Shown piece by piece: positions 3,553 to 61,538 of a stretch of DNA of 64,000 bases. Positions within the stretch are counted from its first letter, which is position 1. Each line of letters begins with the position of its first letter. The stretch comes from a virus. The stretch is taken from IMG/VR virus record IMGVR_UViG_3300037088_000882, positions 28,413 through 92,412 of that record; one strand, written 5' to 3'. Below the pieces are notes generated by a model. It was not told where the DNA came from and made no database searches. It worked only from the letters and a program-made list of their open reading frames with translations. Position numbers and translations under genes: made by a program.

Positions 3553-3639
3553 TGGTACCGGAAGAGTGACTTGAACACTCACGGGATTGCTCCCAATAGA
3601 TCTTGAATCTATCGCGTCTCCCAATTTCGCCATTCCGGC
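3553..3639 (-). tRNA. tRNA-Leu(CAA)
   Basis: Cloverleaf, anticodon arm ATAGA-TTCAAGA-TCTAT, long variable arm, encoded CCA. Confidence 0.95.
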
Positions 3640-3746
3640 TTAAGTGGTCAGGACAGGTTTACGCCCTACGATTTATGCCACACGCTTTTTCATTTTACTG
3701 TACAGTGTGGATCTATTAATATGAAGCATTTCAGCGATTTTTAAAG

Positions 3747-3820
3747 TGGGATTGGAGGAATTCGAATCCTCATTGTGTTGATTTTAAGTCAACTGCCTCT
3801 ACCAGTTGGGCTACAATCCC
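3747..3820 (-). tRNA. tRNA-Leu(TAA), short variable arm
   Basis: GGGATTG/CAATCCC acceptor; GTTGA-CTTAAAA-TCAAC; no CCA. Confidence 0.85.
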
Positions 3821-3868
3821 TCAATATAAATCACATGTCTACCAATTTCAACACCTGAATAGTAAAAA

Positions 3869-3951
3869 TGGAAGGGGCAAGATTTGAACTTGCGAACTCC
3901 GAAGAGACGGGATTTACAGTCCCGGGCCTTTAACCACTCGACCACCCTTCC
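3869..3951 (-). tRNA. tRNA-Tyr(GTA)
   Basis: CGGGA-CTGTAAA-TCCCG, long variable arm. Confidence 0.95.
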
Positions 3952-3958
3952 GTAAATT

Positions 3959-4044
3959 TGCGGATAAGAAGATTTGAACTTCTAAAAGGATTACTCCTCG
4001 CTGGTCTCTGAAACCAGTGTGTTTACCAATTCCACCATATCCGC
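3959..4044 (-). tRNA. tRNA-Leu(CAG)
   Basis: CTGGT-TTCAGAG-ACCAG, long variable arm. Confidence 0.93.
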
Positions 4045-4052
4045 GTAATATA

Positions 4053-4209
4053 TAGATTGCGTTCAAGTTACTAAAGCATTTACCCCTTTCGGGATACTTG
4101 TCGATTCTCAAGATCGATGCCTTACCAATTTGGCTATATTTCCATTCGGAAACACTCGGAGTCGAACCGAGATTAGTAATGTAGGCTTTAATTGTAAAAA
4201 CGCAATCTA
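4053..4209 (-). ncRNA. circularly permuted tRNA-like RNA 1 (YrlA/Y RNA-like)
   Basis: 11-bp terminal stem enclosing T arm, closed acceptor stem (TGTTTCC-GAAT-GGAAATA), D arm, then anticodon arm (TCGAT-CTTGAGA-ATCGA). Confidence 0.75.
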
Positions 4210-4212
4210 ATC

Positions 4213-4299
4213 TGGTGCGGTCGGTCTGATTTGAACAGGCATAGGATTGCTCCCACATGCACCTCAAGCATGCGTGGCTACCAATTACACCACGACCGC
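4213..4299 (-). tRNA. tRNA-Leu(GAG)
   Basis: CATGC-TTGAGGT-GCATG, long variable arm, CCA. Confidence 0.95.
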
Positions 4300-4307
4300 A
4301 TAATTTA

Positions 4308-4452
4308 TAAAGCCATATCCGAGTTATCAATGCTATCTTGATAGATTCTATTCTATTGCCTTTACCATTTGGCTATTCCCCCATAATTGGGGGAACGTGG
4401 AATCGAACCACGAATTTTTAATGTAAGCATCAACGGTAAAGATATGGCTTTA
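4308..4452 (-). ncRNA. circularly permuted tRNA-like RNA 2 (YrlA/Y RNA-like)
   Basis: 12-bp terminal stem; T arm CGTGG-TTCGATT-CCACG, closed acceptor TTCCCCC-AATTAT-GGGGGAA, D arm, hairpin with 6-nt loop; same architecture as RNA 1. Confidence 0.75.
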
Positions 4453-4465
4453 ATTTCAAAGAACT

Positions 4466-4554
4466 TGGTGCGAATGTAGAGATTCGAACTCTAAAGAGCT
4501 GTTAAGCTTCCAGATTCTAAGTCTGGCCCCTGCTACCAATTCGGGTACATTCGC
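4466..4554 (-). tRNA. tRNA-Leu(TAG)
   Basis: CCAGA-CTTAGAA-TCTGG, long variable arm, CCA. Confidence 0.95.
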
Positions 4555-4563
4555 ATATATTTA

Positions 4564-4634
4564 AGACGGTGCCCAGGATCGAACTGGGGCTGTCGGTTTT
4601 GCGGACCGATGCCTTACCTCTTGGCTACACCGTC
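4564..4634 (-). tRNA. tRNA-Cys(GCA), C33 variant
   Basis: TCGGT-CCGCAAA-ACCGA, U73 discriminator, no CCA. Confidence 0.88.
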
Positions 4635-4783
4635 GGATAAAAGAATTTATCTAATTCAAAGACCTCGTTTAAACATATTTCATTGATTTTCTCATTTGTG
4701 AAATCAGGTTCTTGGCCTTCTTCTATGCACGAGAATTTAAATGGTACATTATCTCGTAATTCATGCCCTATTTTAATTTTCAT
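4625..4783 (-). CDS. small hypothetical protein (52 aa); stop codon inside tRNA-Cys
   Basis: MKIKIGHELRDNVPF...FFYPTV*, SD GAGGGG. Confidence 0.5.
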   Translation of the reverse strand: MKIKIGHELRDNVPFKFSCIEEGQEPDFTNEKINEICLNEVFELDKFFYPTV

Positions 4784-4800
4784 TTAATCCCCTCAGTATA

Positions 4801-4847
4801 AAACAAAAAACCCTGCTTGATCTTTAGAACCAAGCAGGGTTTTGTTT
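4801..4847 (-). terminator. attenuator terminator 1
   Basis: AAACCCTGCTTG...CAAGCAGGGTTT followed by U tract. Confidence 0.9.
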
Positions 4848-4867
4848 ATTTCTTTTTTAACTTTAGA

Positions 4868-4954
4868 TCAAGACAAAATCCTACCCGGTCCCTTTAGATA
4901 GCTAAGGTAATATGATAGACACAAAGGTAAGGATTGAATAGTCTTATTGCTCAT
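4868..4954 (-). CDS. leader peptide 1 (Leu/Tyr/Cys): MSNKTIQSLPLCLSYYLSYLKGPGRILS
   Basis: 28-aa ORF between promoter and terminator; its 3' end is complementary to the terminator 5' strand. Confidence 0.85.
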   Translation of the reverse strand: MSNKTIQSLPLCLSYYLSYLKGPGRILS

Positions 4955-4962
4955 GATAACTA

Positions 4963-4991
4963 AATATAACACAGAAAAAATAAAAAGTCAA
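4963..4991 (-). promoter_or_regulatory. sigma70 promoter of tRNA array 1
   Basis: TTGACT-17 nt-TATATT with extended TG. Confidence 0.8.
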
Positions 4992-4999
4992 TTACTTTT

Positions 5000-7072
5000 T
5001 TAAGGTTCTACTGCTGTAAAGTCATTTTCAGGAACAGTGCTTTTATTTTTAGATCCGTATTTCCCAAGACGTGGCGAAATAAGAGAGTCTTCGGAAATAA
5101 ACCCCATAAGAGCTGAAGTTAAAGCTTGCTCACTAAGATATTCTTTTATTACCTGATCTTTATTCAAAACTTTAAAAAGTTTCATAACATGAGATACTTT
5201 GCATAATGCCACTTGTCGATAGGCACTAAGAACATCTTTTTTGATAGCATTAGAGTACATAACATTATGTTGTTTTTGATGAAATTCTGCAGTTTCTTGT
5301 ATGATTGGGGATTCTTCATTAAAAAATACTGCGGATCCCATATGTCCGTCTTCAAAACGGTGTTCATCTTTATAGAAGCATATATTTACTTCATGTTGCA
5401 TATCATTTTTTCCTACAGGGACAATTATTGGCATATCTTTTTTAATTTTTATTTCTATACTAGGAGTAGAATCTCCTGTGCTTTTTGCCTTTTTAACTCG
5501 AATACGTCGCCAAATTTGTTGAGAACCATCTATTGCTACGCCAGTTTTTTTCTCACCTGTATCGCTACCTTTACCCTCACTACTCCCTTTACTTACGCCA
5601 TTTAAAAAGCTCTCCCCCTCTTGGCTAGAGTCGATGAGACCGGTACTTTTTTGGTTTACAGGAACTTCTTCGTCAGTAGGGTCTTTTTTTATTTTTGATT
5701 TATTGGAATAATCTATGACATGGATACTATCGGCAAACCTATTACCGTATTTATCTAAAATTCTTTTTAGAAGAGCTTCATTGCCAGCAATTAGATCATC
5801 GCTGTCTCTGTCTTTATGTAATTCTTTGATTGTGTTAACTATTTCTTCTGGCATGTTTTTTATAAACAGGAGTCCCCAATATTCCATAGGAAGTTCAATA
5901 CTTTTTTTCCCGTTTCCAGTAAAGAATAAATTTGATCGGCTTTGATCAGGGAAGACGCCCCAATCTGTCTCTTGTGTGTGAATCTGGGGTTCTATAATAA
6001 TAGTTAATCGATTTTGAATTTCTTTGTCAATTATTCCGAAATTTCTAAAATTTGATATATGAGAATTAAAATTATATAGCTCTCCTTTATACATAACAGC
6101 AATGAAACCACTTTCTAGAGCATAGCCGTGACATACAGGACGGGCACCTTCCCAAAGGTACCAGCTAATTTTAAGTTTGCCATCTTCGAGATAGAAGGTA
6201 TCTGCTGTTTTAAGTTTACCTATTTTTGGGGCAATAACTTTAGCTTCTGTTATGTAATACTTAGCTCCATGGCATATCCTGGTATTTCCCCTGGTAGTAT
6301 TATATTTTTGTAATTTTTCATTGAATTCTTTTTCGCATCGCGGCCATTCATCTCGATTAGCTTTTCCATAATTAAATTCTTTAACACTAACTTGAATATT
6401 GTCCAGATTAAAAAAACGTGTATTAATATAACGTGTCAAATTTGAGGTATACCCTTTTTCCGATTGCATGTATGTGTCAGTTTTTGAGTCGTTCCCCATA
6501 AGAATGATGCAGGTTCCATGATCTCTAACCCATTTTGGAGCAACTAAAGACCAATCAATTTCATCCTCTTCCCATTCTACTGACATAGGGTCGATAACGG
6601 TTGCTATCTCATCGTTAAATTCCCAACTGGAAATGCTATAGGCTTTTTCCTCTATGTCATAATACATTCGTATCATTGATCCAATACCGTTTTGGTAAGA
6701 TATGTATACAACACCAGCCCCATTCCATGGCAGAAGAGATATTCTACATCCAATACCAAAATTTGTGTGAATGACTCTATCATTTTCATTCATTTCCTGC
6801 ATGACTGCTTTACCGCTGGATTGTATGTTTGTAAAATATTTTTTAAGTTGTTCTGCGGACATGCCATCCCCATCGTCGCAAATCATATGACGGTAAACAC
6901 CCTCTTTAGTAACCGATTGCCATTCAACTCCAAACTCTACTTTTTTAGCATGGGCTTCAATGGCATTCATTAAGACTTCACGGGCCCATTGATAAGGTTG
7001 GCAAAAACGGTATGTTCTGAGAATAAAATCTGTGGCATTTTCCATGCCAATGGGGAAGCTTTTGGAAGACAT
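5000..7072 (-). CDS. GHKL (Hsp90/MORC-like) ATPase
   Basis: REVLMNAIEA, DDGDGM and NFGIG Bergerat-fold motifs. Confidence 0.8.
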   Translation of the reverse strand: MSSKSFPIGMENATDFILRTYRFCQPYQWAREVLMNAIEAHAKKVEFGVEWQSVTKEGVYRHMICDDGDGMSAEQLKKYFTNIQSSGKAVMQEMNENDRVIHTNFGIGCRISLLPWNGAGVVYISYQNGIGSMIRMYYDIEEKAYSISSWEFNDEIATVIDPMSVEWEEDEIDWSLVAPKWVRDHGTCIILMGNDSKTDTYMQSEKGYTSNLTRYINTRFFNLDNIQVSVKEFNYGKANRDEWPRCEKEFNEKLQKYNTTRGNTRICHGAKYYITEAKVIAPKIGKLKTADTFYLEDGKLKISWYLWEGARPVCHGYALESGFIAVMYKGELYNFNSHISNFRNFGIIDKEIQNRLTIIIEPQIHTQETDWGVFPDQSRSNLFFTGNGKKSIELPMEYWGLLFIKNMPEEIVNTIKELHKDRDSDDLIAGNEALLKRILDKYGNRFADSIHVIDYSNKSKIKKDPTDEEVPVNQKSTGLIDSSQEGESFLNGVSKGSSEGKGSDTGEKKTGVAIDGSQQIWRRIRVKKAKSTGDSTPSIEIKIKKDMPIIVPVGKNDMQHEVNICFYKDEHRFEDGHMGSAVFFNEESPIIQETAEFHQKQHNVMYSNAIKKDVLSAYRQVALCKVSHVMKLFKVLNKDQVIKEYLSEQALTSALMGFISEDSLISPRLGKYGSKNKSTVPENDFTAVEP

Positions 7073-7176
7073 AAAAATTATCCTTTCACTAGTAGTACTA
7101 GGGATTGGTTAAAGTAAAAAATAAACTAAGATAAAACTTGAGTTTAAAACACAAGGTTTATCCATAACATTAAAAT

Positions 7177-8004
7177 TTATGGGAATATGACCATTTCGTT
7201 TGAAACAGGTATAGATCGATCCTCTTTTTTACTTTTATTACTACTTTTCGCTGAATATATAATGTCAATTCCTTGTAAATTATTTCCGTTGAATAGCGAT
7301 TCAGTCGCAGATAGTCTATCTATGGACAAGCACCAAGCTTTTTTAGTATTTAAAAAGTCTCTTAAACGTTCAAGATCTTTTAGGCCAAAGTCACAATTAT
7401 ACCATTTTTTTCCGTATTTAATATAAGGAGGGTCTGCGTAGATGAAATCGAATGGCACATTGTTTAGGAAAGTTTCGAAATCCTCACAAGAAACGGAAAG
7501 GATTTTATCTTTTAACAACATTCTTGTCCGTTCGATTTTTCTTATGATATTTGGAGGATTCCAGTATACGTCAACATTCCAGGCACTTTTTTGATCCCAC
7601 CCTCCGATTGGCAAAGACTCTGTAATAAAGCCGTTGTATGAGGTTTTATTAAGGAAGATTACTTTAAATGTTTTTTCTAAGTTTGTTGTTGGTTCACTGT
7701 GAAAAATATTTTTGTAGGTTTCTAAATTAACAACTTGAGTTGTAATTGCTTTATAAAGGGCTTCAAATTCAGAGTTTTTTGAGGCTTTAAAAAATTTCCA
7801 AAATGACCCTACATCTTTATTAGCGTCATTAAGATGGAATTTCCATAAAGGAAAATCCTTTGCCATGTTAATTAATGACCCGCCTCCTCCGACAAAAGGT
7901 TCAGCTACTGTCCATTCTGATGTGCGGGCTTCAGGATATGTGTTTTTTATCATTAAGTCTATTTTTTTCATTAGCCTTAATTTACCGCCGGGGTATCTTA
8001 GCAT
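7177..8004 (-). CDS. dam: Dam-like N6-adenine DNA methyltransferase (D12 class)
   Basis: RYPGGK, EPFVGGG and DPPY motifs. Confidence 0.85.
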   Translation of the reverse strand: MLRYPGGKLRLMKKIDLMIKNTYPEARTSEWTVAEPFVGGGGSLINMAKDFPLWKFHLNDANKDVGSFWKFFKASKNSEFEALYKAITTQVVNLETYKNIFHSEPTTNLEKTFKVIFLNKTSYNGFITESLPIGGWDQKSAWNVDVYWNPPNIIRKIERTRMLLKDKILSVSCEDFETFLNNVPFDFIYADPPYIKYGKKWYNCDFGLKDLERLRDFLNTKKAWCLSIDRLSATESLFNGNNLQGIDIIYSAKSSNKSKKEDRSIPVSNEMVIFP

Positions 8005-8129
8005 TTATTATCCAATTCGGGTTGTGGAGTGAAAATAACGCTTTATATATAATACTCGAATTATATATAAATATAAAAATAAATCGTTTAGAATCTACGA
8101 AAGGTAGGTAATATCAGGATGGGGAGTTT

Positions 8130-8447
8130 TCAGATTTTTATTTCTATAGGTTTTAAGATCATTGATTCGTCTTCTCCTGCATATACTACAGGGATTTCTG
8201 GGTACAGCTTTTTTAATTTATTTGCAAGTTCTATTCCCCAGGTATTAAGTTTTTTTGCTTTGCCTTTTTTGAATGTTGAATAATCTGATTCGAAGCAAGT
8301 ATCGTAATATCTTATCCAAGATTCAAATTCGTTGATTAATTCTTGAGGCAGTTTTAACTCTTCGTAATCAATCATGCCACCAAGATTCTCCCATATACCA
8401 GAACTTGAGAAGTCTGGCATTACTTTTAGCTTTGTTATCTCATTCAT
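8130..8447 (-). CDS. hypothetical protein
   Basis: 105 aa ORF in operon. Confidence 0.6.
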   Translation of the reverse strand: MNEITKLKVMPDFSSSGIWENLGGMIDYEELKLPQELINEFESWIRYYDTCFESDYSTFKKGKAKKLNTWGIELANKLKKLYPEIPVVYAGEDESMILKPIEIKI

Positions 8448-8829
8448 GATTTTCCTTTAAATAAGTGGAGCTACGGGGATTTGAACCCCGAACTTTCAGC
8501 TTGCAAAGCTGACACTCTTCCAATTGAGTTATAGCCCCATTATTTTCTATCTGAATTTCAGATTTCCAGTCTTTTTGTTTCTTTTCCTGCATTGTTAAAC
8601 TTCCACCACTTTCCCAGGCAGTACGCCTTGGGTTTCCACACATATCACAGCTACATAGTTTTGTAGTATTTCTAAGTATGTAAGAGAAATACCTCAATGT
8701 TTTTTCTGTAGGCTTTGAAGAACATAACAATCCTTGAGCACGTTTCTTCCCCTTATTGGCCCCAATAAGGAAACGTTCTCTACGATCTTTTGGATGAGAC
8801 ATAATGTACCCTTTTCTAGCGTCACTCAC
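8440..8829 (-). CDS. hypothetical phage protein (CSCxMCGNPR motif); 3' part contains tRNA-Ala
   Basis: ORF track; Cys motif. Confidence 0.55.
   Translation of the reverse strand: MSDARKGYIMSHPKDRRERFLIGANKGKKRAQGLLCSSKPTEKTLRYFSYILRNTTKLCSCDMCGNPRRTAWESGGSLTMQEKKQKDWKSEIQIENNGAITQLEECQLCKLKVRGSNPRSSTYLKENHE
8466..8538 (-). tRNA. tRNA-Ala(TGC)
   Basis: TCAGC-TTTGCAA-GCTGA; G3:U70 identity pair. Confidence 0.93.
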
Positions 8830-8875
8830 TGACGCATGATAGTGGATATCATTATGTGCTCCTTTCTTTAAAATA

Positions 8876-8948
8876 AGCCGATGAGAGGGCTCAAACCTCC
8901 AACTTGCTGATTACAAATCAGCTACTCTATCAATTGAGTTACACCGGC
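8876..8948 (-). tRNA. tRNA-Thr(TGT)
   Basis: GCTGA-TTTGTAA-TCAGC; D and T loops slightly non-canonical; no CCA. Confidence 0.85.
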
Positions 8949-10249
8949 GTATGAACATATACGTTTTTAATATACTCCAAAGCATCTTCTTGATTCAAGA
9001 TCGTCCCCTCGAGTTGTTGGTCCTCGATATCGGTTAAGATAATACCGAACTCTGGGCCTTGTTTAAAGCCCATATTAAGCAAATCCTTACCAGTCACGAT
9101 TCTTGGAGGACGAATTTCTTCTGGCTCATAAGTCTTGAGCTTTTCGATAACGAAATCATAGTTCTCAAGATTCCTATGCGATGATAAACAATCTACCCGA
9201 TGAAGAGCTAAATGATCTTCAATATTAGGTAGAGCCAGAAATCTTTTCAGTCGAGAAACTCTCATTTTCTTCACATGCATAAATTTCATGTGGTTTTCGA
9301 CTAAGTCTGAAATTCGAGTTACGAAATCATTTGAAAATTTCAACCTTTTCAAAATTCCCCAAGCAATATACTTACCCTTGATATCGTGGCCACTAAACCT
9401 TATACGGTCCTCGAAGGTTTGAGTAGGTGGCTTACCCACATCATGCAATAAGGTTGCCATTCTCACCTCAATAGAAGCCTCAGTAGGAAGATTTTCAAGA
9501 GCTTTTATCGTATGCTCGAGAACATCTCCTTCGGGGTGGTATTGAGGTGGTTGCTCACAACCCTTCATGGCCCGGACCTCGGGCAGGATATGATCGATTA
9601 ATCCAGTATCAAAAAGAAGGTTTACTGCCTTCCTGTAATTACCTGCCATAAGAATCTTAGTAAGTTCATCTGCAACTCTCTCGGCCGAGACCTGGGTTAT
9701 TTCAAAGGCATGCCTTTGAACTGCCTCTATGGTGCCTGGATCGATTTTGAAATCAAACCTGGCAGAAAAACGTACAACTCTCATCATACGTAATTTATCC
9801 TCAGCAATACGGTCATCAGGATTACCTATAAGCTTTATGATACCCTTATGAAGATCTTCAATACCTCCAACAGAATCGTAAATCTTATCTTCAATTGGGT
9901 CATAGAACATCCCATTGATGGTAAGGTCCCTACGTTGAGCATCCTCTTCCATGGTGCAAAAAGAAACGCTATCGGGCCGTCGACCATCCGAGTACACTCC
10001 ATCAGTCCTATAAGTAGCTACTTCGACTTCCTGGCCTTCATGGACGACTACAATGACTCCGAAAGCTTTGCCAACTGCAAGAGTCTTATCGAATAATTGC
10101 TCGACCATTTCGGGACGTGCGTTAGTGGCTATGTCGATATCAGTTGAAGTCCTTTGTAAGAGCATGTCTCGGACATAGCCTCCAGCAAAGAGAGCTTCAT
10201 AGCCATGGTCTCGTAATTTTTTAACTACATATAATGCTTGTTGTAACAT
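8939..10249 (-). CDS. cca: CCA-adding tRNA nucleotidyltransferase with HD domain
   Basis: GGYVRD, DIDIAT, RRDLTIN, HPEGD and LLHDVGK motifs. Confidence 0.9.
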   Translation of the reverse strand: MLQQALYVVKKLRDHGYEALFAGGYVRDMLLQRTSTDIDIATNARPEMVEQLFDKTLAVGKAFGVIVVVHEGQEVEVATYRTDGVYSDGRRPDSVSFCTMEEDAQRRDLTINGMFYDPIEDKIYDSVGGIEDLHKGIIKLIGNPDDRIAEDKLRMMRVVRFSARFDFKIDPGTIEAVQRHAFEITQVSAERVADELTKILMAGNYRKAVNLLFDTGLIDHILPEVRAMKGCEQPPQYHPEGDVLEHTIKALENLPTEASIEVRMATLLHDVGKPPTQTFEDRIRFSGHDIKGKYIAWGILKRLKFSNDFVTRISDLVENHMKFMHVKKMRVSRLKRFLALPNIEDHLALHRVDCLSSHRNLENYDFVIEKLKTYEPEEIRPPRIVTGKDLLNMGFKQGPEFGIILTDIEDQQLEGTILNQEDALEYIKNVYVHTPV

Positions 10250-10250
10250 A

Positions 10251-10562
10251 TTATCCTATTTTGATATTTTCTTCTTCAATTTTAACCCCTTGTTTTTCAA
10301 GGGATTTGAGATCTCTTTCCAGTTCCTTTATATCTTGTTTTTTATGCTCCAAAACATATATGATAAATCTTTTTATAGCTATGGCATCTTCATCTGAAAC
10401 TTGAACAGTTGAATAGCTTGAAAATTGTATCTCTGATTTTGTTGGATCATCTTTTTTATAGCACAGTATTCGTGTGTTTGCACTACCGCCTGTGAAAGAA
10501 TATTCAATGCCTTCTGAAAAAAAAGATCCAGTACAGACATGCATAATATTAACATTTTTCAT
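10251..10562 (-). CDS. hypothetical protein
   Basis: 103 aa ORF in operon. Confidence 0.55.
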   Translation of the reverse strand: MKNVNIMHVCTGSFFSEGIEYSFTGGSANTRILCYKKDDPTKSEIQFSSYSTVQVSDEDAIAIKRFIIYVLEHKKQDIKELERDLKSLEKQGVKIEEENIKIG

Positions 10563-10581
10563 ATTTTATCCTATTTAAATT

Positions 10582-10659
10582 TGGGGTGGAAGACGGGGCT
10601 TGAACCCGCAACCACTGGCTTCACAGGCCAGGGCTCTAGCCAATTGAGCTACCTCCACC
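10582..10659 (-). tRNA. tRNA-His(GTG) with encoded G-1
   Basis: CTGGC-CTGTGAA-GCCAG; G-1:C73; CCA. Confidence 0.95.
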
Positions 10660-10665
10660 ATAAAA

Positions 10666-11355
10666 TCAGTCTTCTCTTACTTGAACAAATTTTTCGATGT
10701 ATTCTCGATCTTTAGTGAAAATCGGAATGTTTAAATCTACATCCCCATTAACAACACAAAAACCACGTTTCCGCACAACTGGATATTTATCGAAATTTAT
10801 TCCTTTTTTCTGGAATAGTAACTCTTGTATTTCCTTACAAGAGACTTTATTTAATTCCTTGTGTGAAAAGTTTTCTCGCCCTGCCATCTGGATTGAGTTC
10901 CTGGTGGCATCCACTTGTCTCCATATGAAATAGTTTACTACCTCATCCTGAGGAATTGAAAAAACTCTACTATCAAAACAGACGTTGCTTCCATAGAGTC
11001 GAGAAAAGACTGCACTGGCCAAGGAAGCTGATATTGAAATCATTTTTCGTGCATCGTATCCGAACCAGGCATCTGTCGAGATCTTTTTATAATCTGTTAA
11101 AAGAAAGCTTATTTCGTCGGATTGGCAGTAACAAAAACCGCACCCTTGAATGTCAGCTAATACCGTATTAGCAGTTGCGATCATTTGCTCGGTAAACTCC
11201 ATGGACCATCCTTTTCCGAATCTTTTTCTGGTGATGGTGTGGAAGGCCCGGCCATCGATCCTGAGTATTACCGGAATCCGTCTTGGTAAAGTCCAAGCTG
11301 AGACTGATTCATAACGCTTCATGCGATCGCCTAGGTCTAACCTATCACTACTCAT
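10666..11355 (-). CDS. thg1: tRNA-His guanylyltransferase Thg1-like 3'-5' polymerase
   Basis: RMKRYE, RIDGRAFH, QSDEIS, FDSR and WRQVDATRNS motifs. Confidence 0.93.
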   Translation of the reverse strand: MSSDRLDLGDRMKRYESVSAWTLPRRIPVILRIDGRAFHTITRKRFGKGWSMEFTEQMIATANTVLADIQGCGFCYCQSDEISFLLTDYKKISTDAWFGYDARKMISISASLASAVFSRLYGSNVCFDSRVFSIPQDEVVNYFIWRQVDATRNSIQMAGRENFSHKELNKVSCKEIQELLFQKKGINFDKYPVVRKRGFCVVNGDVDLNIPIFTKDREYIEKFVQVRED

Positions 11356-11602
11356 TTTTATTCCGATCTGTTATATAAGATTTAAGTCTTTTAATTATCC
11401 CATTTCCTGTTTCTATACCGTAGAAATCATTCACACAGTTATGGATTCTTTCTACGATTCGATCTGATTTTGATCCTTGTTTTACTGCGTTTTCGTAATA
11501 ATCAATCCAGTCTACAAGCATGTTGTTTTTTTGCAGTACTTCTAACACAAATTCAAGAGGTAGCCCTATAGATGATACTACAAAATGGATTCCTCTAACC
11601 AC
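11348..11602 (-). CDS. small protein resembling an alanyl-tRNA synthetase helical subdomain
   Basis: F-x-SSIGLPLE...LVDW resembles the AlaRS motif FKLYDTYGFPLD...VD. Confidence 0.45.
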   Translation of the reverse strand: MVRGIHFVVSSIGLPLEFVLEVLQKNNMLVDWIDYYENAVKQGSKSDRIVERIHNCVNDFYGIETGNGIIKRLKSYITDRNKNE

Positions 11603-11684
11603 TATTTTTTTATCGGTCGAGTATCCTGAGAACTGTGATACGTTGCGTTTAGCATGAAGCTATTACCCTTCTATTATACATAAA

Positions 11685-11770
11685 TGGCGGAGGCGAGACG
11701 AGTCGAACGTCCAAGGCCTTTCGGCCGGCGGTTTTCAAGACCGCTGAATTACCAGTTATCCTACGCCTCC
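11685..11770 (-). tRNA. tRNA-Ser(TGA)
   Basis: GCGGT-CTTGAAA-ACCGC, long variable arm, G73, CCA. Confidence 0.95.
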
Positions 11771-11780
11771 ATATATCTCA

Positions 11781-11853
11781 AGCCCACATCCTGGATCGAA
11801 CAGGAGACCTCATCCTTACCAAGGATGTGCTCTACCAACTGAGCTATGTGGGC
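11781..11853 (-). tRNA. tRNA-Thr(GGT)
   Basis: CATCC-TTGGTAA-GGATG; no CCA. Confidence 0.95.
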
Positions 11854-11856
11854 ATA

Positions 11857-12297
11857 TTACCTTAACCCGTAAAGGTACAGCAATCCTGCCCATCCACTTG
11901 GAAGGCATTCTGGTGCTGTTTCTAATTTCTTTCCGTATTTCACAGCCATTTCTAAAAAATACTTAGCATGAAAGAATGCCTCTAACATTGGCCGAGTGTG
12001 TTTGAGCCATTCCTTATTATGTTTTGAATCAAATACTTTACCAGTTCCTTCCTGGTATATTTGATCGAAGTCATCATTAAACATAACTCCTACAGGAGCT
12101 AAACTTTTTAAAGTTTCTATTATCTTTTGAGTGCTTCCCTGTATGCCGTATACTTTAAAAGAGGAATGGTAGAAACGGTAAACGTAATCCTCATAACACC
12201 AATGGTCATTAATATCTTCCAGGAGCTTTTCAAGCTCGGGGAGTCTTGCCTTGATATTTACCAAGAGGTCTTTACTAAGATCTTGTCTCTCACTCAT
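11857..12297 (-). CDS. hypothetical protein (start MSERQ; the longer ORF call runs through tRNA-Trp and the attenuator)
   Basis: SD GGGAG before ATG 12297. Confidence 0.7.
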   Translation of the reverse strand: MSERQDLSKDLLVNIKARLPELEKLLEDINDHWCYEDYVYRFYHSSFKVYGIQGSTQKIIETLKSLAPVGVMFNDDFDQIYQEGTGKVFDSKHNKEWLKHTRPMLEAFFHAKYFLEMAVKYGKKLETAPECLPSGWAGLLYLYGLR

Positions 12298-12317
12298 AAG
12301 AACTCCCTTTTTAAAGA

Positions 12318-12379
12318 TGGCAGGAGTGGATCGAACCCCCATCGTCGGTTTTGGAGACCGGGTGCTTAGCGACACTCCT
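12318..12379 (-). tRNA. truncated tRNA-Trp(CCA)-like gene (62 nt)
   Basis: AGGAGTG/CACTCCT-G-CCA acceptor, CTCCAAA loop; D arm minimal, T-stem 3' strand missing. Confidence 0.6.
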
Positions 12380-12381
12380 AT

Positions 12382-12424
12382 AAAACAAAAAACCCCGCCG
12401 AATCTTTCGATCGAGCAGGGTTTG
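12382..12424 (-). terminator. attenuator terminator 2
   Basis: AAACCCTGCTCGA...TCGGCGGGGTTT followed by U tract. Confidence 0.88.
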
Positions 12425-12452
12425 ATTTGAAACACTTTATTTTTACTTAACC

Positions 12453-12551
12453 TTACTCGATCTCCAATATAGTATGCCAATGTGCCCATGATGTCGATGT
12501 GGTGGCCATTGCATTATTAGAGGATGATGTAGTAAGATTAATTGTTTTCAT
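12453..12551 (-). CDS. leader peptide 2 (Thr/Ser/Trp/His/Ala): MKTINLTTSSSNNAMATTSTSWAHWHTILEIE
   Basis: 32-aa apparently leaderless ORF; stop region pairs with the terminator 5' strand. Confidence 0.9.
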   Translation of the reverse strand: MKTINLTTSSSNNAMATTSTSWAHWHTILEIE

Positions 12552-56772: not shown

Positions 56773-57142
56773 ATTTCCAGTATTTACGAACCCTTATATG
56801 CTTACCATTAGGCATGTTATGGTAAGTCACATTGCCACTCATATCTGTTCTTTTATAAGAAGTGTTCATAAGCCATGTACGGAGCCGTATAGTATTATAC
56901 TCAGCTGTTCGTACTAGTTCTTCTGTTATGGGAACGTTTTCCTTAAATCTATGAATGCCTCCAGCACAGCCCCCATTACACCATACGTAATGTAAGGCAT
57001 CGAGTTCGAGATTCTTTTTTCTCGTCGCTTCATTGAGCATTTGAAGGGCGTGTTTTTGATGATGGATTAATTCTTCAAGTTGTTTTATATGTATAGCTTG
57101 GTTTTTTATTTTTAATTCTAGATCAGACATTATAAGCCCCAT
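56732..57142 (-). CDS. hypothetical protein
   Basis: ORF track. Confidence 0.55.
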   Translation of the reverse strand: MGLIMSDLELKIKNQAIHIKQLEELIHHQKHALQMLNEATRKKNLELDALHYVWCNGGCAGGIHRFKENVPITEELVRTAEYNTIRLRTWLMNTSYKRTDMSGNVTYHNMPNGKHIRVRKYWKFVLWLAGLSKKWM

Positions 57143-58146
57143 TTAAGAATGTATTCATTAGATAAGGCCTTGAAGCTGATTTTTTCTAAACTGTCATACA
57201 GCCTGAAAACCGTACCCTCTTGTAAAAGTTGGGGGTTTAAAGGGCTTGGAATATCGGCCATTTTTAAAAGTTCATCACAAGTATGGTTCAGAATGAAATT
57301 ATCATTGAGGATCGGAACTGTTTTTAATCCTAATCCTTTAACAAATGAAAGCATATCATCAAGCTTTAAGTACTGCTGTTTTTTAATGTCAAAAACATAA
57401 AACACATAAAGGTCAACACCTTTTAATTTGATCCGATTGCTTTGAATTCCTTCTCCTGCAGTTTCAGCCTGGATAGCATACCCATCAGGAAGTTTTTCTT
57501 TCAAATTGTATCGGTTAGCAAGTTTCCAAAATATGTTTTTATCATTCTCTATAAATTCTAAGCTATGACCACAGGCCCCGAATATTCCATCACTTTTGTA
57601 AAAGGTTGATGAAGTTCCATCTATTTTAGATGTTAAGTAAAATCTTTGCCCCTTATATTTATTAAGCAAGCTAAGACAGTTTTGAACTCTCTCTTCATCA
57701 GTTTTCGGTATTATTCCTGGTAATAACCCCTTCATTTCTCCGGCCAGGTGTACGGGAATAGGGGGTTCGTATCTATAAACCCCAATTTGCTTAGTAACTT
57801 CAGTTCCGATTTCTCGATCGGTTATTTCTGGGAATTGAAATAAAGGGAGAGCTAGACCTTGCGAGATTTGGCCTCTGAGCCTTATTGTCTTTAAGCGGAA
57901 TCCTATAACTTCTTTACCGTCCTCTATAATGGATTTTTTTAAAGTATTTCCTTTTGAAAGGAAGGAGAACTGGGGAATATTAGGTAATAATGAATCCACT
58001 TCAAAGTACAAACAGAGATCTTGAGGTTTGAAATTACCTTTTTGTGTTACACACCACCATCCTTGAATTCTTATTTTTTCAATAGCATCGGCCCCTTCAA
58101 TGGGCAAAACTTCTTCAATACGCTGTATAGAGGCGAGTTTACGCAT
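57130..58146 (-). CDS. RNA ligase (DRB0094/Rnl2-like)
   Basis: RKLASI..ADAIE N-domain, KTDEER, KIDGTS, EG.V and SFK motifs. Confidence 0.9.
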   Translation of the reverse strand: MRKLASIQRIEEVLPIEGADAIEKIRIQGWWCVTQKGNFKPQDLCLYFEVDSLLPNIPQFSFLSKGNTLKKSIIEDGKEVIGFRLKTIRLRGQISQGLALPLFQFPEITDREIGTEVTKQIGVYRYEPPIPVHLAGEMKGLLPGIIPKTDEERVQNCLSLLNKYKGQRFYLTSKIDGTSSTFYKSDGIFGACGHSLEFIENDKNIFWKLANRYNLKEKLPDGYAIQAETAGEGIQSNRIKLKGVDLYVFYVFDIKKQQYLKLDDMLSFVKGLGLKTVPILNDNFILNHTCDELLKMADIPSPLNPQLLQEGTVFRLYDSLEKISFKALSNEYILKWGL

Positions 58147-58203: not shown

Positions 58204-58884
58204 TCAAATTTTATTGTGGGCAAAAATGTAATTACCGCCCGTATTCTTCATCAGTTTATAATTGGGGCCAATAATATTTTCGAACTCTTTTTGGGTTGTG
58301 GGGAATTTCTTTAGAGGGGCATATTCTACAATAATTATTTTTGGGTCGTATTCTTCAAAATTTAATCCTCGCAAGACCGCCAGGTCGTTTCCTTCTGTAT
58401 CAATACACAGGGCATCAATATCTTTAATGTTGTGTTTCTTAAAAAGATCGTTTAGCGTTAAAACTGATACTTCTTCCTGTCCTATATCTGGACCAAGTCT
58501 ACGGTCATTAGGGTCTTCTGGTTTTGTTTCTTGCTCTCTTAATGAATGGCATCCTTGCTCTCTTTTTATGAATAAAGTAGCTTTTTTTGATACACTTGAT
58601 ACTGCTATATTTTCCAAAATCACTTTATTATTGTTATCGTAAAGATATTTTAATTGTTTAAAATAAATAGAATAAGGCTCCACTAAAAGAGCACTCCAAT
58701 CATATTCATTGATCAATTTAAATGAGTTAGATACACTAACTCCATCAGCAGCTCCTACATCAACAATAAGGCCATTTTTCTTACTGTTAAAGTAATTAAT
58801 AATAAAGTCGTCTTCATTGTTTGATGCAGTAAATGTACGGCTGGCACGAAAAGCACTTATTTTGGGATCTTTTAGGTTGATCAT
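58204..58884 (-). CDS. FkbM-family methyltransferase
   Basis: VDVGAADG.SNS, VEP and IDTEG motifs. Confidence 0.85.
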   Translation of the reverse strand: MINLKDPKISAFRASRTFTASNNEDDFIINYFNSKKNGLIVDVGAADGVSVSNSFKLINEYDWSALLVEPYSIYFKQLKYLYDNNNKVILENIAVSSVSKKATLFIKREQGCHSLREQETKPEDPNDRRLGPDIGQEEVSVLTLNDLFKKHNIKDIDALCIDTEGNDLAVLRGLNFEEYDPKIIIVEYAPLKKFPTTQKEFENIIGPNYKLMKNTGGNYIFAHNKI

Positions 58885-58976: not shown

Positions 58977-59062
58977 TGGCGGAGAGCCGGCGATTTGAAC
59001 GCCGAAGCCCTTTCGGGCGCTGGTTTAGCAAACCAGGGTCATACCATTAGACATAGCTCTCC
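58977..59062 (-). tRNA. tRNA-Ser(GCT)
   Basis: CTGGT-TTGCTAA-ACCAG, long variable arm, CCA. Confidence 0.95.
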
Positions 59063-59310
59063 ATAATTTGTTTGATAAGGTTTTGTTCTATAAATCTTTT
59101 TACATCAGCAGGATAGATAGTGTAAGCAATATTATCAATCTCATAATCTGGGTCGTCGCCTAAAAATTCAATAAATCTTTCTAAAGGTATTTCTTCTCGT
59201 TTTCTGTTTGGGGTAAATATTATAAGGTTCCCTCGTTGTCCTCGGAGATACCATTTCCATGTATCAGCCCCGATGTGAATTTTTCTTAGAGCTTTCATTT
59301 TACGAGACAT
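59047..59310 (-). CDS. hypothetical protein; stop codon inside tRNA-Ser
   Basis: SD AAGGA. Confidence 0.6.
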   Translation of the reverse strand: MSRKMKALRKIHIGADTWKWYLRGQRGNLIIFTPNRKREEIPLERFIEFLGDDPDYEIDNIAYTIYPADVKRFIEQNLIKQIMESYV

Positions 59311-59328
59311 GCGTTTTCCTTAAAATAG

Positions 59329-59404
59329 TGGTGGGTGTTTCCAGACTCGAACTGGAATAACAGGATTTTCAGTCCCGCACCTTGACCCCGTTGGTAAAAC
59401 ACCC
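59329..59404 (-). tRNA. tRNA-Phe(GAA)
   Basis: CGGGA-CTGAAAA-TCCTG, CCA. Confidence 0.9.
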
Positions 59405-59458
59405 ATTATAAAGACACTAAAGCCATCGTTGTCCATTGGGTGTTTCCTTTCTTGTTAA

Positions 59459-59535
59459 TGGTAGGCCCGGACCGAGTTGAACGGTCGACCCCTACCTTAT
59501 CAGGGTAATGCTCTAACCATCTGAGCTACGGGCCT
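59459..59535 (-). tRNA. tRNA-Ile(GAT)
   Basis: TTACC-CTGATAA-GGTAG, CCA. Confidence 0.95.
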
Positions 59536-59542
59536 GTAAATC

Positions 59543-59629
59543 TAGCGGGAGCAGGATTCGAACCTGCGTCCTCTGTTAAGAGGTGAGGCTTATGAGACCC
59601 CCGAGTTAGACCAACTACTCTATCCCGCG
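59543..59629 (-). tRNA. initiator-type tRNA-Met(CAT) with long variable arm
   Basis: C1:U72 mismatch, CTCATAA loop, variable stem CCTCT-TAAC-AGAGG. Confidence 0.8.
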
Positions 59630-59637
59630 ATAATTTA

Positions 59638-59715
59638 TGGTGGTGGTAGCTGGATTTAAACCAGCGAATCTCTGGATTATGATTCCAGGGCATTAATCAG
59701 CTATGCTATACCACC
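59638..59715 (-). tRNA. tRNA-Met(CAT), elongator (or Ile2)
   Basis: CTGGA-ATCATAA-TCCAG; atypical D and T loops; CCA. Confidence 0.75.
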
Positions 59716-59769
59716 ATATTAGCTCCTCCAATTTTTTGTGCTTTTAGTGTGTACATCTAAACTCCATAA

Positions 59770-59846
59770 TGGCGGGCCCGACGTGGATCGAACACGCGAC
59801 CTCCGCAGTGACAGTGCGGCGTTCTAGCCAATTGAACTACGAGCCC
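59770..59846 (-). tRNA. tRNA-Asp(GTC)
   Basis: CCGCA-CTGTCAC-TGCGG, G73, CCA. Confidence 0.95.
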
Positions 59847-59890
59847 AAAAAACAAAAAACCTCGTTGGTTTCCCAGCGAGGTTTTGATTT
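59847..59890 (-). terminator. attenuator terminator 3
   Basis: AAAACCTCGCTGG-GAAA-CCAACGAGGTTTT followed by U tract, directly before tRNA-Asp. Confidence 0.9.
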
Positions 59891-59913
59891 AATCTATTTT
59901 GTTACTTGTTAAA

Positions 59914-60003
59914 TCAAGACCCCGCCTTAGGCATAGTATCAAACATGCTATCACTAATGATAAACATAAAGCTGATACTGACGGTCTTGGTTGAAAGTAA
60001 CAT
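59914..60003 (-). CDS. leader peptide 3 (Ser-AGY/Ile/Phe/Met/Asp): MLLSTKTVSISFMFIISDSMFDTMPKAGS
   Basis: 29-aa ORF with SD AAGGA; stop region pairs with the terminator 5' strand. Confidence 0.9.
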   Translation of the reverse strand: MLLSTKTVSISFMFIISDSMFDTMPKAGS

Positions 60004-60046
60004 TGAAAGTAATTTCCTTAGTAAAGTAAACTGCGAATCTTAATTA

Positions 60047-60075
60047 AAGATAACACATAAAAAAGTTTTTGTCAA
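60047..60075 (-). promoter_or_regulatory. sigma70 promoter of tRNA array 3
   Basis: TTGACA-17 nt-TATCTT with extended TG. Confidence 0.8.
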
Positions 60076-60379
60076 TATATTTTTTTAAAAAAATAATTTA
60101 TACTCGATTTCATGTATAAGAGTGTATAATTTGTTATAAATAATTTTAAAGATAAATTTGCACTTAAGTTATTTTTATGCTATATTAAGGTCTAATAGTT
60201 TATCTCTATAGGTTTTTTACTTATTTGTTTTTCAAAGGAGTTTTATATGTAATCGCAAAATGTTTACTCGCTTCATTTGTGTAATAGCCAGTTGGGTCGG
60301 GCCATTAAGTGTCCCATTAATACTGACAGGCTAACGTTTTAAGATCACTAAACGCAAAACAACTAACAAGGAGTCTATC

Positions 60380-60985
60380 ATGGTTTCTCTATCCGCCCTC
60401 ATTGACTTACACGCCTCTTTTGACACTCAGTACGGAATCGGTAACAATCTCATTCATTATCTTGCTCAACTTCGAACTACTCAGAATTTTGATTTTGAAG
60501 GTATAAAACAGCTCTTTATTACCCGTCAAAGCCCACAAAGATTTGATGAGTTTAATTTAAAAGTAGCTCCTATGGATATATCTCTTTTAAAAAAGAGACT
60601 TGTACTTCCTGCAAGTGATAATGAAATTTACCGAATTGTTATGTCAGAGGATCCGACAATCCCAGAATTGGAACTCTTTTCTTTTAAATGCCCTGGCTGG
60701 TCGAATTTATTTGCCCTGAAATGGTATTTGGTGCATCACATGGATAAGGCTAAGGCCTTTACTGGGTTTCTTCCCTATGGCTCTCCTGTAGTAGCCTTTG
60801 TAAATTCTTTGAGATCTAAACCTCGAAACATCCCGATGAACCCAGATTATGCAGATCATGTGTACTTGCAGACAATTAGTAATCAGGAGGCCTTGACTTT
60901 TAATATGCCTTCAATCGAAATAAATAATATTATGTATCTTAAAGGATTGAAGTATACAAAGGCTGAAAAAGAAATATCTGAATAA
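60380..60985 (+). CDS. hypothetical protein
   Basis: SD AAGGAG. Confidence 0.65.
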   Translation: MVSLSALIDLHASFDTQYGIGNNLIHYLAQLRTTQNFDFEGIKQLFITRQSPQRFDEFNLKVAPMDISLLKKRLVLPASDNEIYRIVMSEDPTIPELELFSFKCPGWSNLFALKWYLVHHMDKAKAFTGFLPYGSPVVAFVNSLRSKPRNIPMNPDYADHVYLQTISNQEALTFNMPSIEINNIMYLKGLKYTKAEKEISE

Positions 60986-60991
60986 TTTTTC

Positions 60992-61020
60992 TTGACTTTA
61001 CTTTTTAAAACAGTTATAAT
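60992..61020 (+). promoter_or_regulatory. sigma70 promoter of tRNA array 4
   Basis: TTGACT-17 nt-TATAAT, 6 nt before the leader ATG. Confidence 0.88.
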
Positions 61021-61026
61021 TATACC

Positions 61027-61104
61027 ATGTTAAAAAATACGTTAAACACAATTATAGGTACGGTCGGGATAAGTGAACGTAAGGTAGGAGGATTTCTAAC
61101 CTGA
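61027..61104 (+). CDS. leader peptide 4: MLKNTLNTIIGTVGISERKVGGFLT
   Basis: 25-aa apparently leaderless ORF; CCTGACAGGGCCT pairs with the terminator 5' strand AGGCCCCGTCAGG. Confidence 0.8.
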   Translation: MLKNTLNTIIGTVGISERKVGGFLT

Positions 61105-61134
61105 CAGGGCCTGTATTGTATAAAAAGTAAGTTC

Positions 61135-61170
61135 AAGGCCCCGTCAGGAAACCGACGGGGCCTTTTTTAT
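61135..61170 (+). terminator. attenuator terminator 4
   Basis: AAGGCCCCGTC-AGGAAACC-GACGGGGCCTT followed by U tract. Confidence 0.92.
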
Positions 61171-61215
61171 TGTTTGTTCTTTTACATTGTTGTTCGAATT
61201 AAGAAGCACCTTTAT

Positions 61216-61288
61216 GGTCCGTTCGTCTAGTGGTTAGGACATGAGATTTTCATTCTCAAGATCACCAGTTCAATCCTGGTACGGACTA
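61216..61288 (+). tRNA. tRNA-Glu(TTC)
   Basis: TGAGA-TTTTCAT-TCTCA; GTCTAGTGG D arm; no CCA. Confidence 0.9.
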
Positions 61289-61292
61289 TTAC

Positions 61293-61367
61293 GGCTCTAT
61301 CGTCTAACGGCTAGGACGAAGGTTTTTCGAACCTTAGACTGGAGTTCAACTCTCCATAGAGCTACCA
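61293..61367 (+). tRNA. tRNA-Glu(TTC), second divergent copy
   Basis: AAGGT-TTTTCGA-ACCTT; CCA. Confidence 0.85.
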
Positions 61368-61457
61368 ATTTAACCCTTGTTGCATAGACTTGGGTTCAGC
61401 TCCTTAATAGGAGTTGTGAGTTGAAATAGGTAAGAACTGACACGCTGCCAGGAATAT

Positions 61458-61538
61458 AGGGTAGTACCGAGCCGCTCTTATAAGGCGGATAGTCGTAATG
61501 GTATGTGGAAGATATGAGTTCAAGTCTCATCTACCCTA
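61458..61538 (+). tRNA. D-armless tRNA-Ile(TAT)-like RNA
   Basis: AGGGTAG/CTACCCT-A acceptor, CCGCT-CTTATAA-GGCGG, T arm ATGAG-TTCAAGT-CTCAT; about 25-nt variable region. Confidence 0.6.

Follow-up and report, generated by a model that had tools for sequence, protein, structure and literature searches.

The final 64 kb of a 92-kb virus contig (IMG/VR record IMGVR_UViG_3300037088_000882, positions 28,413 to 92,412), hereafter called the window, contain four arrays of transfer RNA (tRNA) genes, and we found that each of these arrays is preceded by a short unit consisting of a promoter, a leader frame and a strong transcription terminator. These units are likely to be ribosome-mediated attenuators of the trp/his type that stand before tRNA (and tRNA-repair) operons, and in which a ribosome stalling at cognate codons leads to read-through. 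The phage would probably make the tRNAs of an array only when ribosomes decode the codons of the corresponding leader slowly. Attenuation of this kind had been put forward in the initial annotation of the window. Our analysis supports it in that every sequence-level prediction that was tested, namely the placement of the antiterminator, the codon match, the recurrence in other phages and the in-frame position of insertions and deletions (indels), was borne out.

All four units show the same order of a promoter, an ATG-initiated frame, a spacer of 25-30 nucleotides (nt), a GC-rich hairpin with a T-tract and the first tRNA gene, which lies 10 to 174 nt from the terminator (Table 1). The initial annotation had described this common layout of sigma-70 promoter, leader open reading frame (ORF), spacer, intrinsic terminator and tRNAs, with leaders of 25-32 amino acids (aa). 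We recovered it before four of four arrays and read ATG frames of 28, 32, 29 and 25 codons in units 1-4, respectively. The promoters agree with the sigma-70 consensus at 10-12 of 12 positions and ranked top on their own strand in the two stretches that were scanned, where those of units 1 and 3 tie with other 10/12 sites. A further site with 11 of 12 consensus positions lies outside the units (62621-62649, + strand), and no strong promoter was found between terminator and tRNAs in the scan of the two stretches. Since the ATG follows the -10 hexamer by only 6-8 nt in units 1, 2 and 4, their messenger RNAs (mRNAs) are predicted to be leaderless, or in unit 1 leaderless or nearly so.

When both strands of the window were scanned for terminators, the hairpins of the four units took the first four ranks by strength among the compact terminators of the 64 kb, in line with the strong intrinsic terminators reported before for all four. 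Strong terminators that occur exclusively in one setting, some 150 nt after a strong promoter and immediately ahead of tRNA genes, need explaining. For the 5' arm of each terminator the best upstream partner is the 3' end of the leader frame or its stop codon (4/4 units). Duplexes as strong as this antiterminator pairing occurred in fractions of 0.0035, 0.0035, 0.013 and 0.0005 (units 1-4, respectively) of 2000 random windows of the contig. The complementarity between leader end and terminator that had been claimed for each unit is therefore present in all four, at a strength reached by 0.0005-0.013 of random windows. Within each unit the energies of antiterminator and terminator are similar.

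Table 1. Coordinates of the attenuator units, tRNA arrays and neighbouring genes in the window (position 1 is the first nucleotide of the 64 kb).
Feature	Position	Strand	Details
Unit 1 promoter	4963-4991	-	TTGACT, 17 nt, TATATT, TG extension; ATG 8 nt past -10 hexamer
Unit 1 leader frame	4868-4954	-	28 codons
Unit 1 antiterminator 5' segment	4874-4891	-	within last 8 leader codons; duplex -17.2 kcal/mol
Unit 1 intrinsic terminator	4807-4843	-	16-bp stem, about -21.5 kcal/mol, T-tract
Array 1	3553-4634	-	Cys(GCA), Leu(UAG), Leu(GAG), Leu(CAG), Tyr(GUA), Leu(UAA), Leu(CAA); ARAGORN, Rfam
Unit 2 promoter	12559-12587	-	TTGACA, 17 nt, TATAAT, 12/12; ATG 7 nt past -10 hexamer
Unit 2 leader frame	12453-12551	-	32 codons: 7 Thr, 5 Ser (all TCN), 3 Ala, 2 His, 2 Trp
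Unit 2 antiterminator 5' segment	12448-12463	-	across stop codon; duplex -19.3 kcal/mol
Unit 2 intrinsic terminator	12390-12423	-	-18.7 kcal/mol, T-tract
Array 2	8465-11853	-	Thr(GGU), Ser(UGA), His(GUG), Thr(UGU), Ala(UGC); ARAGORN, Rfam
Unit 3 promoter	60047-60075	-	TTGACA, 17 nt, TATCTT, TG extension; 43-nt 5' untranslated region with AAGGA ribosome-binding site
Unit 3 leader frame	59914-60003	-	29 codons: 4 Ser AGY, 3 Ile ATY, 3 Phe, 3 internal Met, 2 Asp
Unit 3 antiterminator 5' segment	59918-59927	-	just ahead of stop codon; duplex -13.1 kcal/mol
Unit 3 intrinsic terminator	59856-59885	-	-14.8 kcal/mol, T-tract; 11 nt before tRNA-Asp
Array 3	58977-59846	-	Asp(GUC), two CAU tRNAs, Ile(GAU), Phe(GAA), Ser(GCU); ARAGORN, Rfam
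Unit 4 promoter	60992-61020	+	TTGACT, 17 nt, TATAAT, 11/12; ATG 6 nt past -10 hexamer
Unit 4 leader frame	61027-61104	+	25 codons
Unit 4 antiterminator 5' segment	61099-61113	+	across stop codon; duplex -24.0 kcal/mol
Unit 4 intrinsic terminator	61135-61164	+	-22.6 kcal/mol, T-tract
Array 4	61215-61289, 61293-61367	+	two tRNAs with anticodon UUC; ARAGORN, Rfam
Array 4, third member	61458-61538	+	D-armless tRNA-like gene, anticodon UAU, 22-nt variable region; relaxed settings
Trp-like element	12310-12379	-	tRNA-like, Trp-type anticodon loop (CCA), reduced D arm, defective acceptor stem; relaxed ARAGORN score
52-codon ORF	4625-4783	-	between unit 1 terminator and tRNA-Cys; GAGGGG ribosome-binding site
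Thg1-like enzyme	10666-11355	-	adjoins tRNA-His in array 2
CCA-adding enzyme	8939-10249	-	within array 2
FkbM methyltransferase	58204-58884	-	downstream of array 3
RNA ligase	57130-58146	-	PHA02142 OB domain; downstream of array 3

The influence of a translating ribosome on the two competing structures was modelled by folding the transcript up to the terminator loop while the ribosome footprint was masked at successive codons. With the A site on a matched codon, i.e. one read by a tRNA of the downstream array, upstream pairing of the terminator 5' arm was 0.5-0.9 and mostly 0.7-0.9; at the last matched codon of unit 3 it was already down to 0.4. Over the final 4-9 positions to the stop codon the values were 0.1-0.6, mostly 0.1-0.3, and in units 1-3 the fold switched at or just past the last matched codon. 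In line with the masking of the antiterminator inferred in the initial annotation, the modelled arm thus loses most of its upstream pairing after the ribosome has left the last matched codon. On reaching the stop codon, the ribosome would hide the antiterminator segment while still being 25-30 nt away from the terminator stem, so that finishing the leader should favour termination and stalling should favour read-through.

The course of events that we propose from these models starts with a strong promoter giving a transcript that opens with a frame of 25-32 codons. In units 1, 2 and 4 translation would begin at an ATG that coincides with the start of transcription as predicted, and in unit 3 it would begin after a ribosome-binding site. 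The last codons, the stop codon and the first bases beyond it would be able to base-pair with the terminator, whose 5' arm lies 25-30 nt further on. A ribosome that finishes the frame would cover this antiterminator segment, the terminator would fold and the transcript would end before the tRNAs. A ribosome delayed halfway through the frame, at the sensor codons, which are those read by the downstream isoacceptors, would leave the segment free; the free segment would pair with the terminator 5' arm once this is made, and RNA polymerase would read into the tRNA genes. In arrays 2 and 3 such read-through might reach genes for tRNA maturation and repair as well. The product of each operon, decoding capacity for a defined set of codons, would in this way feed back on its own synthesis, array by array.

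The same parts could in theory be wired differently. The switch might be independent of translation, with tRNA bound directly by the transcript via contacts of codon and anticodon in a T-box-like manner, or it might have the opposite polarity, finished translation of the leader leading to read-through; we regard either as very improbable. T-box leaders are established to choose between terminator and antiterminator by tRNA as well, and consecutive cognate codons could in principle serve as binding sites. However, no Rfam T-box or riboswitch was matched at any threshold used, the phage leaders lack a conserved core and do not come near the length of a T-box, and the in-frame indels and the frame specificity of the codon match described below point to decoding. 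As for polarity, a ribosome at the stop codon, at its distance from the stem, can favour the terminator but cannot melt it.

Attenuation by ribosome stalling predicts that the leader codons correspond to the tRNAs downstream. We scored this correspondence with standard wobble rules and, as a relaxed variant, with U34 reading whole four-codon boxes. Array 1 reads 10 of the 27 codons of its leader (six Leu, three Tyr and one Cys), array 2 reads 16 of 31 (19 with relaxed wobble) and array 3 reads 15 of 28, compared to 0-5 matches of leaders 1-3 with the other arrays (0-6 with relaxed wobble). The corresponding binomial P values against the codon usage of the phage were 2e-3, 5e-7 and 9e-5, and among 426 short ATG frames that were taken mechanically from the contig 20, 1 and 3 matched at least as well as leaders 1, 2 and 3, respectively. 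Within leader 1, codons 9-20 hold five of the six Leu codons (TTA, TTG, CTA twice and CTT), the three Tyr codons and the Cys codon, and the sixth Leu codon (TTG) is codon 27. Each amino acid served by arrays 1-3 is present in the own leader, while Cys, Trp and His codons were found only in the leader whose array has that tRNA. The correspondence extends to the Ser isoacceptor: unit 2, with Ser-UGA in its array, has five TCN and no AGY codons, and unit 3, with Ser-GCU, has four AGY codons in the sensor part and two TCN codons outside of it. The codon match proposed earlier for arrays 1-3, including the respect for the Ser codon box, is thereby confirmed.

Homologues of the four leaders were found by sequence neither in the GenBank phage collection nor in 170 fetched loci, and we therefore searched for the architecture instead. 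With the Thg1-like gene of array 2 as an anchor, loci were collected first among virus contigs and later among metagenome contigs, and the whole tRNA regions of four contigs were added. Among loci fetched via a NUDIX neighbour there was one useful case (L005), and among those fetched via the 201-aa neighbour of units 3 and 4 there was none. Strong terminators directly before tRNA arrays, with a short frame ahead of each, were again found in other phage contigs, in unrelated sequences. Locus L100 has a 19-codon frame with five Gln and four Pro codons, followed by tRNA-Pro and tRNA-Gln. On one strand of L061 a frame with six TTA and four Ile codons precedes tRNA-Leu(UAA) and tRNA-Ile, and on the opposite strand a frame with Gln, Pro and two Trp codons precedes Gln, Pro, Pro and Trp tRNAs. 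An Arg/Gln/Pro-rich frame in L104 is followed by Pro, Gln and two Arg tRNAs, and a frame with eight Leu, two Tyr and one Cys codons in L101 by tRNA-Cys and tRNA-Leu. The unit of L101 looks like a diverged counterpart of unit 1 and is the sole such locus. Loci of this layout in other phage contigs thus keep both the frame and the codon match despite differing sequences, as the attenuation reading had anticipated.

An automatic rule was used to put the match on a statistical footing. It took terminators of -14 kcal/mol or stronger at most 600 nt before a tRNA on the same strand, assigned as leader the longest ATG frame of 15-50 codons with its stop between 110 nt before and 3 nt after the stem start, and counted as array all same-strand tRNAs as far as the next qualifying terminator. 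This gave 14 non-redundant pairs of leader and array from the window and the other phage contigs, with frames that agree with the reading by eye. The fractions of leader codons read by the own array sum to 5.16, compared to 2.31 +/- 0.41 in shuffled pairings (z 6.9), and none of 300,000 shuffles reached 5.16. Without the four pairs of the window the sum is 3.76 compared to 1.88, again with 0/300,000 shuffles, so that the excess predicted for the own array over shuffled pairings holds in other phage contigs, too. The match is specific for the reading frame (38% in frame versus 17% and 14% in the other frames). It is also specific for the isoacceptor box: where an array serves one of two boxes, 33 of 40 Leu, Ser and Arg codons fall into the served box (expected 19.8, P = 1.6e-5), and four of the seven exceptions stem from L101, whose array is truncated at the end of its contig. 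In 12 of the 14 pairs the best antiterminator duplex is found -28 to +9 nt from the stop codon. The loci contain 38 non-redundant strong terminators, 16 of which stand before tRNAs, and the longest upstream frame has 20-44 codons at 15/16 of them versus 4/22 of the others (Fisher P = 6.7e-6).

Two virus genomes stand apart from these statistics. In L049, a 497-kb GC-rich virus contig, promoter-like sites and mini-frames were seen at about 4900-5000, 8760-8920 and 18170-18360. The mini-frames are rich in Lys, in Glu and in Ala/Ser/Gly/Arg codons, and the arrays behind them carry tRNAs for Lys, for Glu and Asn, and for Arg, Ser, Gly and Ala, respectively. Hairpins were seen in L049, canonical terminators with a T-tract were not, and the contig was excluded from the statistics. 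The Xanthomonas jumbo phage XacN1 was considered as a cultured example and is not counted as support, as it has no T-tract terminators before its tRNAs. Its only suggestive mini-frame has 13 codons, among them three for Lys and four for Tyr, and lies just ahead of tRNA-Lys, tRNA-Lys and tRNA-Tyr (5400-5570 of L180, about 30400-30570 of the record), and the repeated motif ACTAAATAG, one base, TTTACA lies ahead of several of its tRNA groups.

Related phages allowed the evolution of leaders to be followed. Phages G001 and G002 have three homologous units each, in which the promoter, the ribosome-binding site, the first codons, the antiterminator segment and the terminator hardly differ between the two phages. 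The central part of the frame has been rewritten, with three indels (3, 9 and 3 nt) and a 9-nt replacement, none of which shifts the frame, and the sensor parts keep the same restricted set of codons. One unit has the order of its residues scrambled and still uses Thr, Phe, Asn, Ser (AGY only) and Cys codons. Cleanly aligned 1-nt indels between leader and T-tract were located in the spacer behind the stop codon or in the terminator hairpin, and upstream of the start codon there are gaps of several lengths. In one terminator a C-G pair has become T-A, and the antiterminator strand, itself unaltered, can pair as before via G-U. A further phage, G004, has two leaders with a common promoter, 5' untranslated region and first codons, and sensor parts of Arg/Ser in one and Gln/Pro/Trp in the other, each matching the own array. 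We infer from the in-frame indels, the kept codon composition and the frame specificity that the leaders are probably translated.

Since frame and codon content are kept and the peptide sequence is not, selection acts on the former two, as is predicted for a decoding sensor and not for a micro-protein. This bears on a simpler explanation of the units, in which they are independent genes for micro-proteins or small RNAs, the tRNAs are expressed from other promoters or by leak-through, and the codon match is due to coincidence or composition. A promoter, a short transcript and a terminator are indeed the anatomy of a small-RNA gene as well, and unit 4 is without a codon match. Such genes would, however, not account for a match that is specific for the frame and, against 300,000 shuffles, for the array, and that recurs in unrelated sequences. 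They would also not explain a conserved codon composition and frame in an unconserved peptide, or why, in 12 of 14 pairs, the segment complementary to the terminator arm is located at the stop codon, and alternative strong promoters between terminator and tRNAs are missing. We therefore consider independent genes highly unlikely.

In the same phages we observed tRNAs with the anticodon CUA, i.e. amber suppressors, in arrays controlled by a leader (L095 and L096, belonging to G001 and G002, and L061, belonging to G004). The leader of the amber-suppressor array of G001 and G002 ends with TAG, and its next in-frame stop is many codons away. Suppression at this stop codon would take the ribosome into the terminator region.

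Several points weigh against attenuation as proposed here. Leader 1 is equalled by 20 of 426 AT-rich short ORFs, and unit 1 on its own is therefore only moderately unusual. In unit 4 the visible tRNAs read 3 of 24 leader codons (P = 0.43), so that the heading of the initial annotation, which named codon-matched attenuators for all four arrays, holds for the layout in 4/4 cases and for the codon match in units 1-3 only, to which the body of that annotation had confined it. Gly, Thr, Ile, Leu, Lys, Asn and Val codons abound in leader 4; the contig contains no tRNAs for Gly, Asn, Lys and Val, and none for the two ACG codons of this leader. The contig ends 2.5 kb beyond array 4, and it is possible that the operon continues past this end, interspersed with ORFs like array 2. 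Behind the two TGG codons of leader 2 stands, in this contig, a defective tRNA (the Trp-like element of Table 1). No attenuator unit was seen at the arrays of L025, L078, L065, L020 and L044, and given the many arrays without a unit in L025, L078, L065 and L020 the layout is not universal. No RNA run containing this phage was listed, and none of the Rfam leader families (Trp, His, Thr, Leu and Phe leaders, PyrR site) was found at gathering threshold. Matches below it were at chance level (E 0.5-0.7), with 29.6 bits versus a threshold of 54 for PyrR, 24.3 versus 55 for Phe_leader and 23.5 versus 49 for His_leader. Finally, the folds disagree on the default state of the switch: minimum-energy folds of the full-length transcripts contain the terminator together with a protector (1:2) pairing that sequesters the antiterminator segment, in conflict with the ensemble of truncated transcripts, which favours the antiterminator (0.5-0.9) when the leader is untranslated.

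The last of these results is of importance for what the attenuators might report. Should a leader that is not translated indeed favour the antiterminator, the arrays would come on whenever initiation or elongation is blocked, and the leaderless starts of units 1, 2 and 4 make initiation a possible control point. Besides, it is established for trp and his attenuation that a stalled ribosome cannot distinguish between an absent and an uncharged tRNA. The units might respond to the general status of translation or to amino-acid starvation, as a global alarm or a timer of infection and not as sensors of the supply of particular tRNAs, and the codon match would mainly ensure that the leader can be decoded by phage tRNAs after these have been produced. 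We consider this unlikely, while giving it a better chance than the other alternatives. An alarm would not need an own leader with an own codon set for each array, down to the isoacceptor box, and the paralogous leaders within phage G004 share their 5' part and differ solely in the sensor codons.

The window was further characterized with respect to its origin and gene content. The contig is estimated by CheckV to be 20% complete, the window encodes a DNA polymerase and helicases of phage replication, and near-identical matches to its DNA were found in peat metagenomes. Contigs of four peat runs, compared to window positions 4500-12700, showed no variants within leaders 1 and 2. All tRNA genes of the whole contig lie inside the window. 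They were placed with ARAGORN and Rfam, which both reproduced the array positions given in the initial annotation, and two extra tRNA-like elements (12310-12379 and 61458-61538) needed relaxed settings.

Array 1 contains five Leu isoacceptors. In a gap between its Leu tRNAs (4053-4452) we noted a partial tRNA match below threshold at 4091-4143 (- strand, 24.8 bits), and the 52-codon ORF between the unit 1 terminator and tRNA-Cys gave no family match. Array 2 is interspersed with co-oriented ORFs, and inside it only weak promoter-like sites and no strong terminator were found. The Trp-like element in front of array 2 was not called by ARAGORN under default settings, either with or without a 5-nt insertion. 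This insertion of five extra bases at 12322 was seen in one contig from another peat run (depth 3.7), where it leads to a perfect 7-bp acceptor stem followed by GCCA. The version in the window may therefore be a collapsed direct repeat or a decayed copy.

Among the tRNAs of array 4, the second (61293-61367, + strand) has the anticodon UUC, a G at position 37 and a body unlike that of the first, and its amino-acid identity is uncertain. The third member retains intact acceptor, anticodon and T arms, with the D arm replaced by 4 nt. It scored 37 bits against the Rfam tRNA model, and there are two ATA codons in leader 4.

The genes found next to the tRNAs might indicate a wider function of the switch. 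If arrays 2 and 3 are co-transcribed with the maturation and repair genes beside them, the attenuators may control a regulon of tRNA supply and repair, which would fit a response to loss of or damage to tRNA. Regarding the trigger, the anticodon nucleases of the host, as named in the initial annotation, are a speculation, for which the co-oriented genes for a Thg1-like protein, a CCA-adding enzyme and an RNA ligase give circumstantial support. As a tentative generalization, large phages from several unrelated lineages may carry modular and rewritable decoding sensors with a codon list that mirrors the tRNA set, a separate feedback for each block of tRNAs, and replacement tRNAs and repair enzymes that are co-induced upon depletion or cleavage of particular isoacceptors by the host, together forming an inducible counter-defence against anticodon nucleases.

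Phage tRNA genes are usually seen as helpers in codon usage or as spares against defences that cleave tRNA. If the proposed attenuation is true, it would be the first case known to us of a tRNA operon that senses its own product via the speed of decoding, and a mechanism familiar from textbooks would gain a new class of target genes. Each leader could be read as a prediction of the codons which the phage expects to run limiting. Co-regulated repair enzymes would, provided that they are co-transcribed, tie the switch to the arms race over tRNA cleavage. As the units are short, modular and, as it seems, re-programmable by a change of codons, they should be easy to test with reporters or in defined translation systems and might possibly be useful as synthetic sensors of single tRNA pools.

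According to the initial annotation, no description of such control was known to its author for phage tRNA arrays. We likewise found no published account of it, and no description of leader-peptide attenuation of tRNA genes in general, in the full-text literature that was searched, in which subscription journals are partly covered, so that older work may exist. Closest in architecture are the multivalent attenuators of the ilvGMEDA operon, with Leu, Val and Ile codons in the leader, and of the thr operon, with Thr and Ile codons, next to trpL, hisL, leuL and pheL. What they have in common with the phage units is a promoter, a short leader enriched in regulatory codons of more than one amino acid, an intrinsic terminator and an antiterminator strand at the end of the leader, where the position of the ribosome would decide the fold. 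They differ in that biosynthetic enzymes are regulated, whereas the phage units would regulate tRNAs together with enzymes of tRNA maturation and repair. Unlike the ilvGMEDA and thr leaders, the phage leaders match at the level of the isoacceptor codon box, beyond the amino acid, their sensor codons are mixed without long runs of a single codon, and three of the four appear to be leaderless mRNAs. Further, a protector (1:2) hairpin is not clearly needed in the phage units, and there is no relationship by sequence or in Rfam.

The pheM-pheST attenuator of Escherichia coli, in which a leader with Phe codons controls the genes for phenylalanyl-tRNA synthetase, is similar in that leader-peptide attenuation is applied to the decoding apparatus and not to biosynthesis. 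It differs in having a synthetase as its target, a specificity for a single amino acid and its place in a host gene. T-box riboswitches, too, sense the state of tRNA and choose between terminator and antiterminator before genes that restore decoding capacity. They bind uncharged tRNA directly and without translation, with one specifier codon and a conserved core, and their targets are genes for synthetases, transporters and biosynthesis. The phage units, in contrast, have no match to the specifier loop or T-box core (RF00230, no match at gathering threshold or at E up to 1), and their proposed targets are tRNA genes.

The nearest published case of a regulated accessory tRNA array that we found is the trn operon of Anabaena sp. 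PCC 7120, a long tRNA array that is silent and becomes induced under translational stress (PMC8421152) and that is repressed by TrcR (PMC10272220). Like the phage arrays in the proposed scheme, it is kept off and comes on when translation is impaired. It differs in that it relies on a protein repressor and resides on a bacterial megaplasmid, and attenuation, a leader or a terminator are not mentioned in PMC8421152 and PMC10272220. The logic of attenuation is known, and its application to tRNA genes is a variant of this logic and no new principle.

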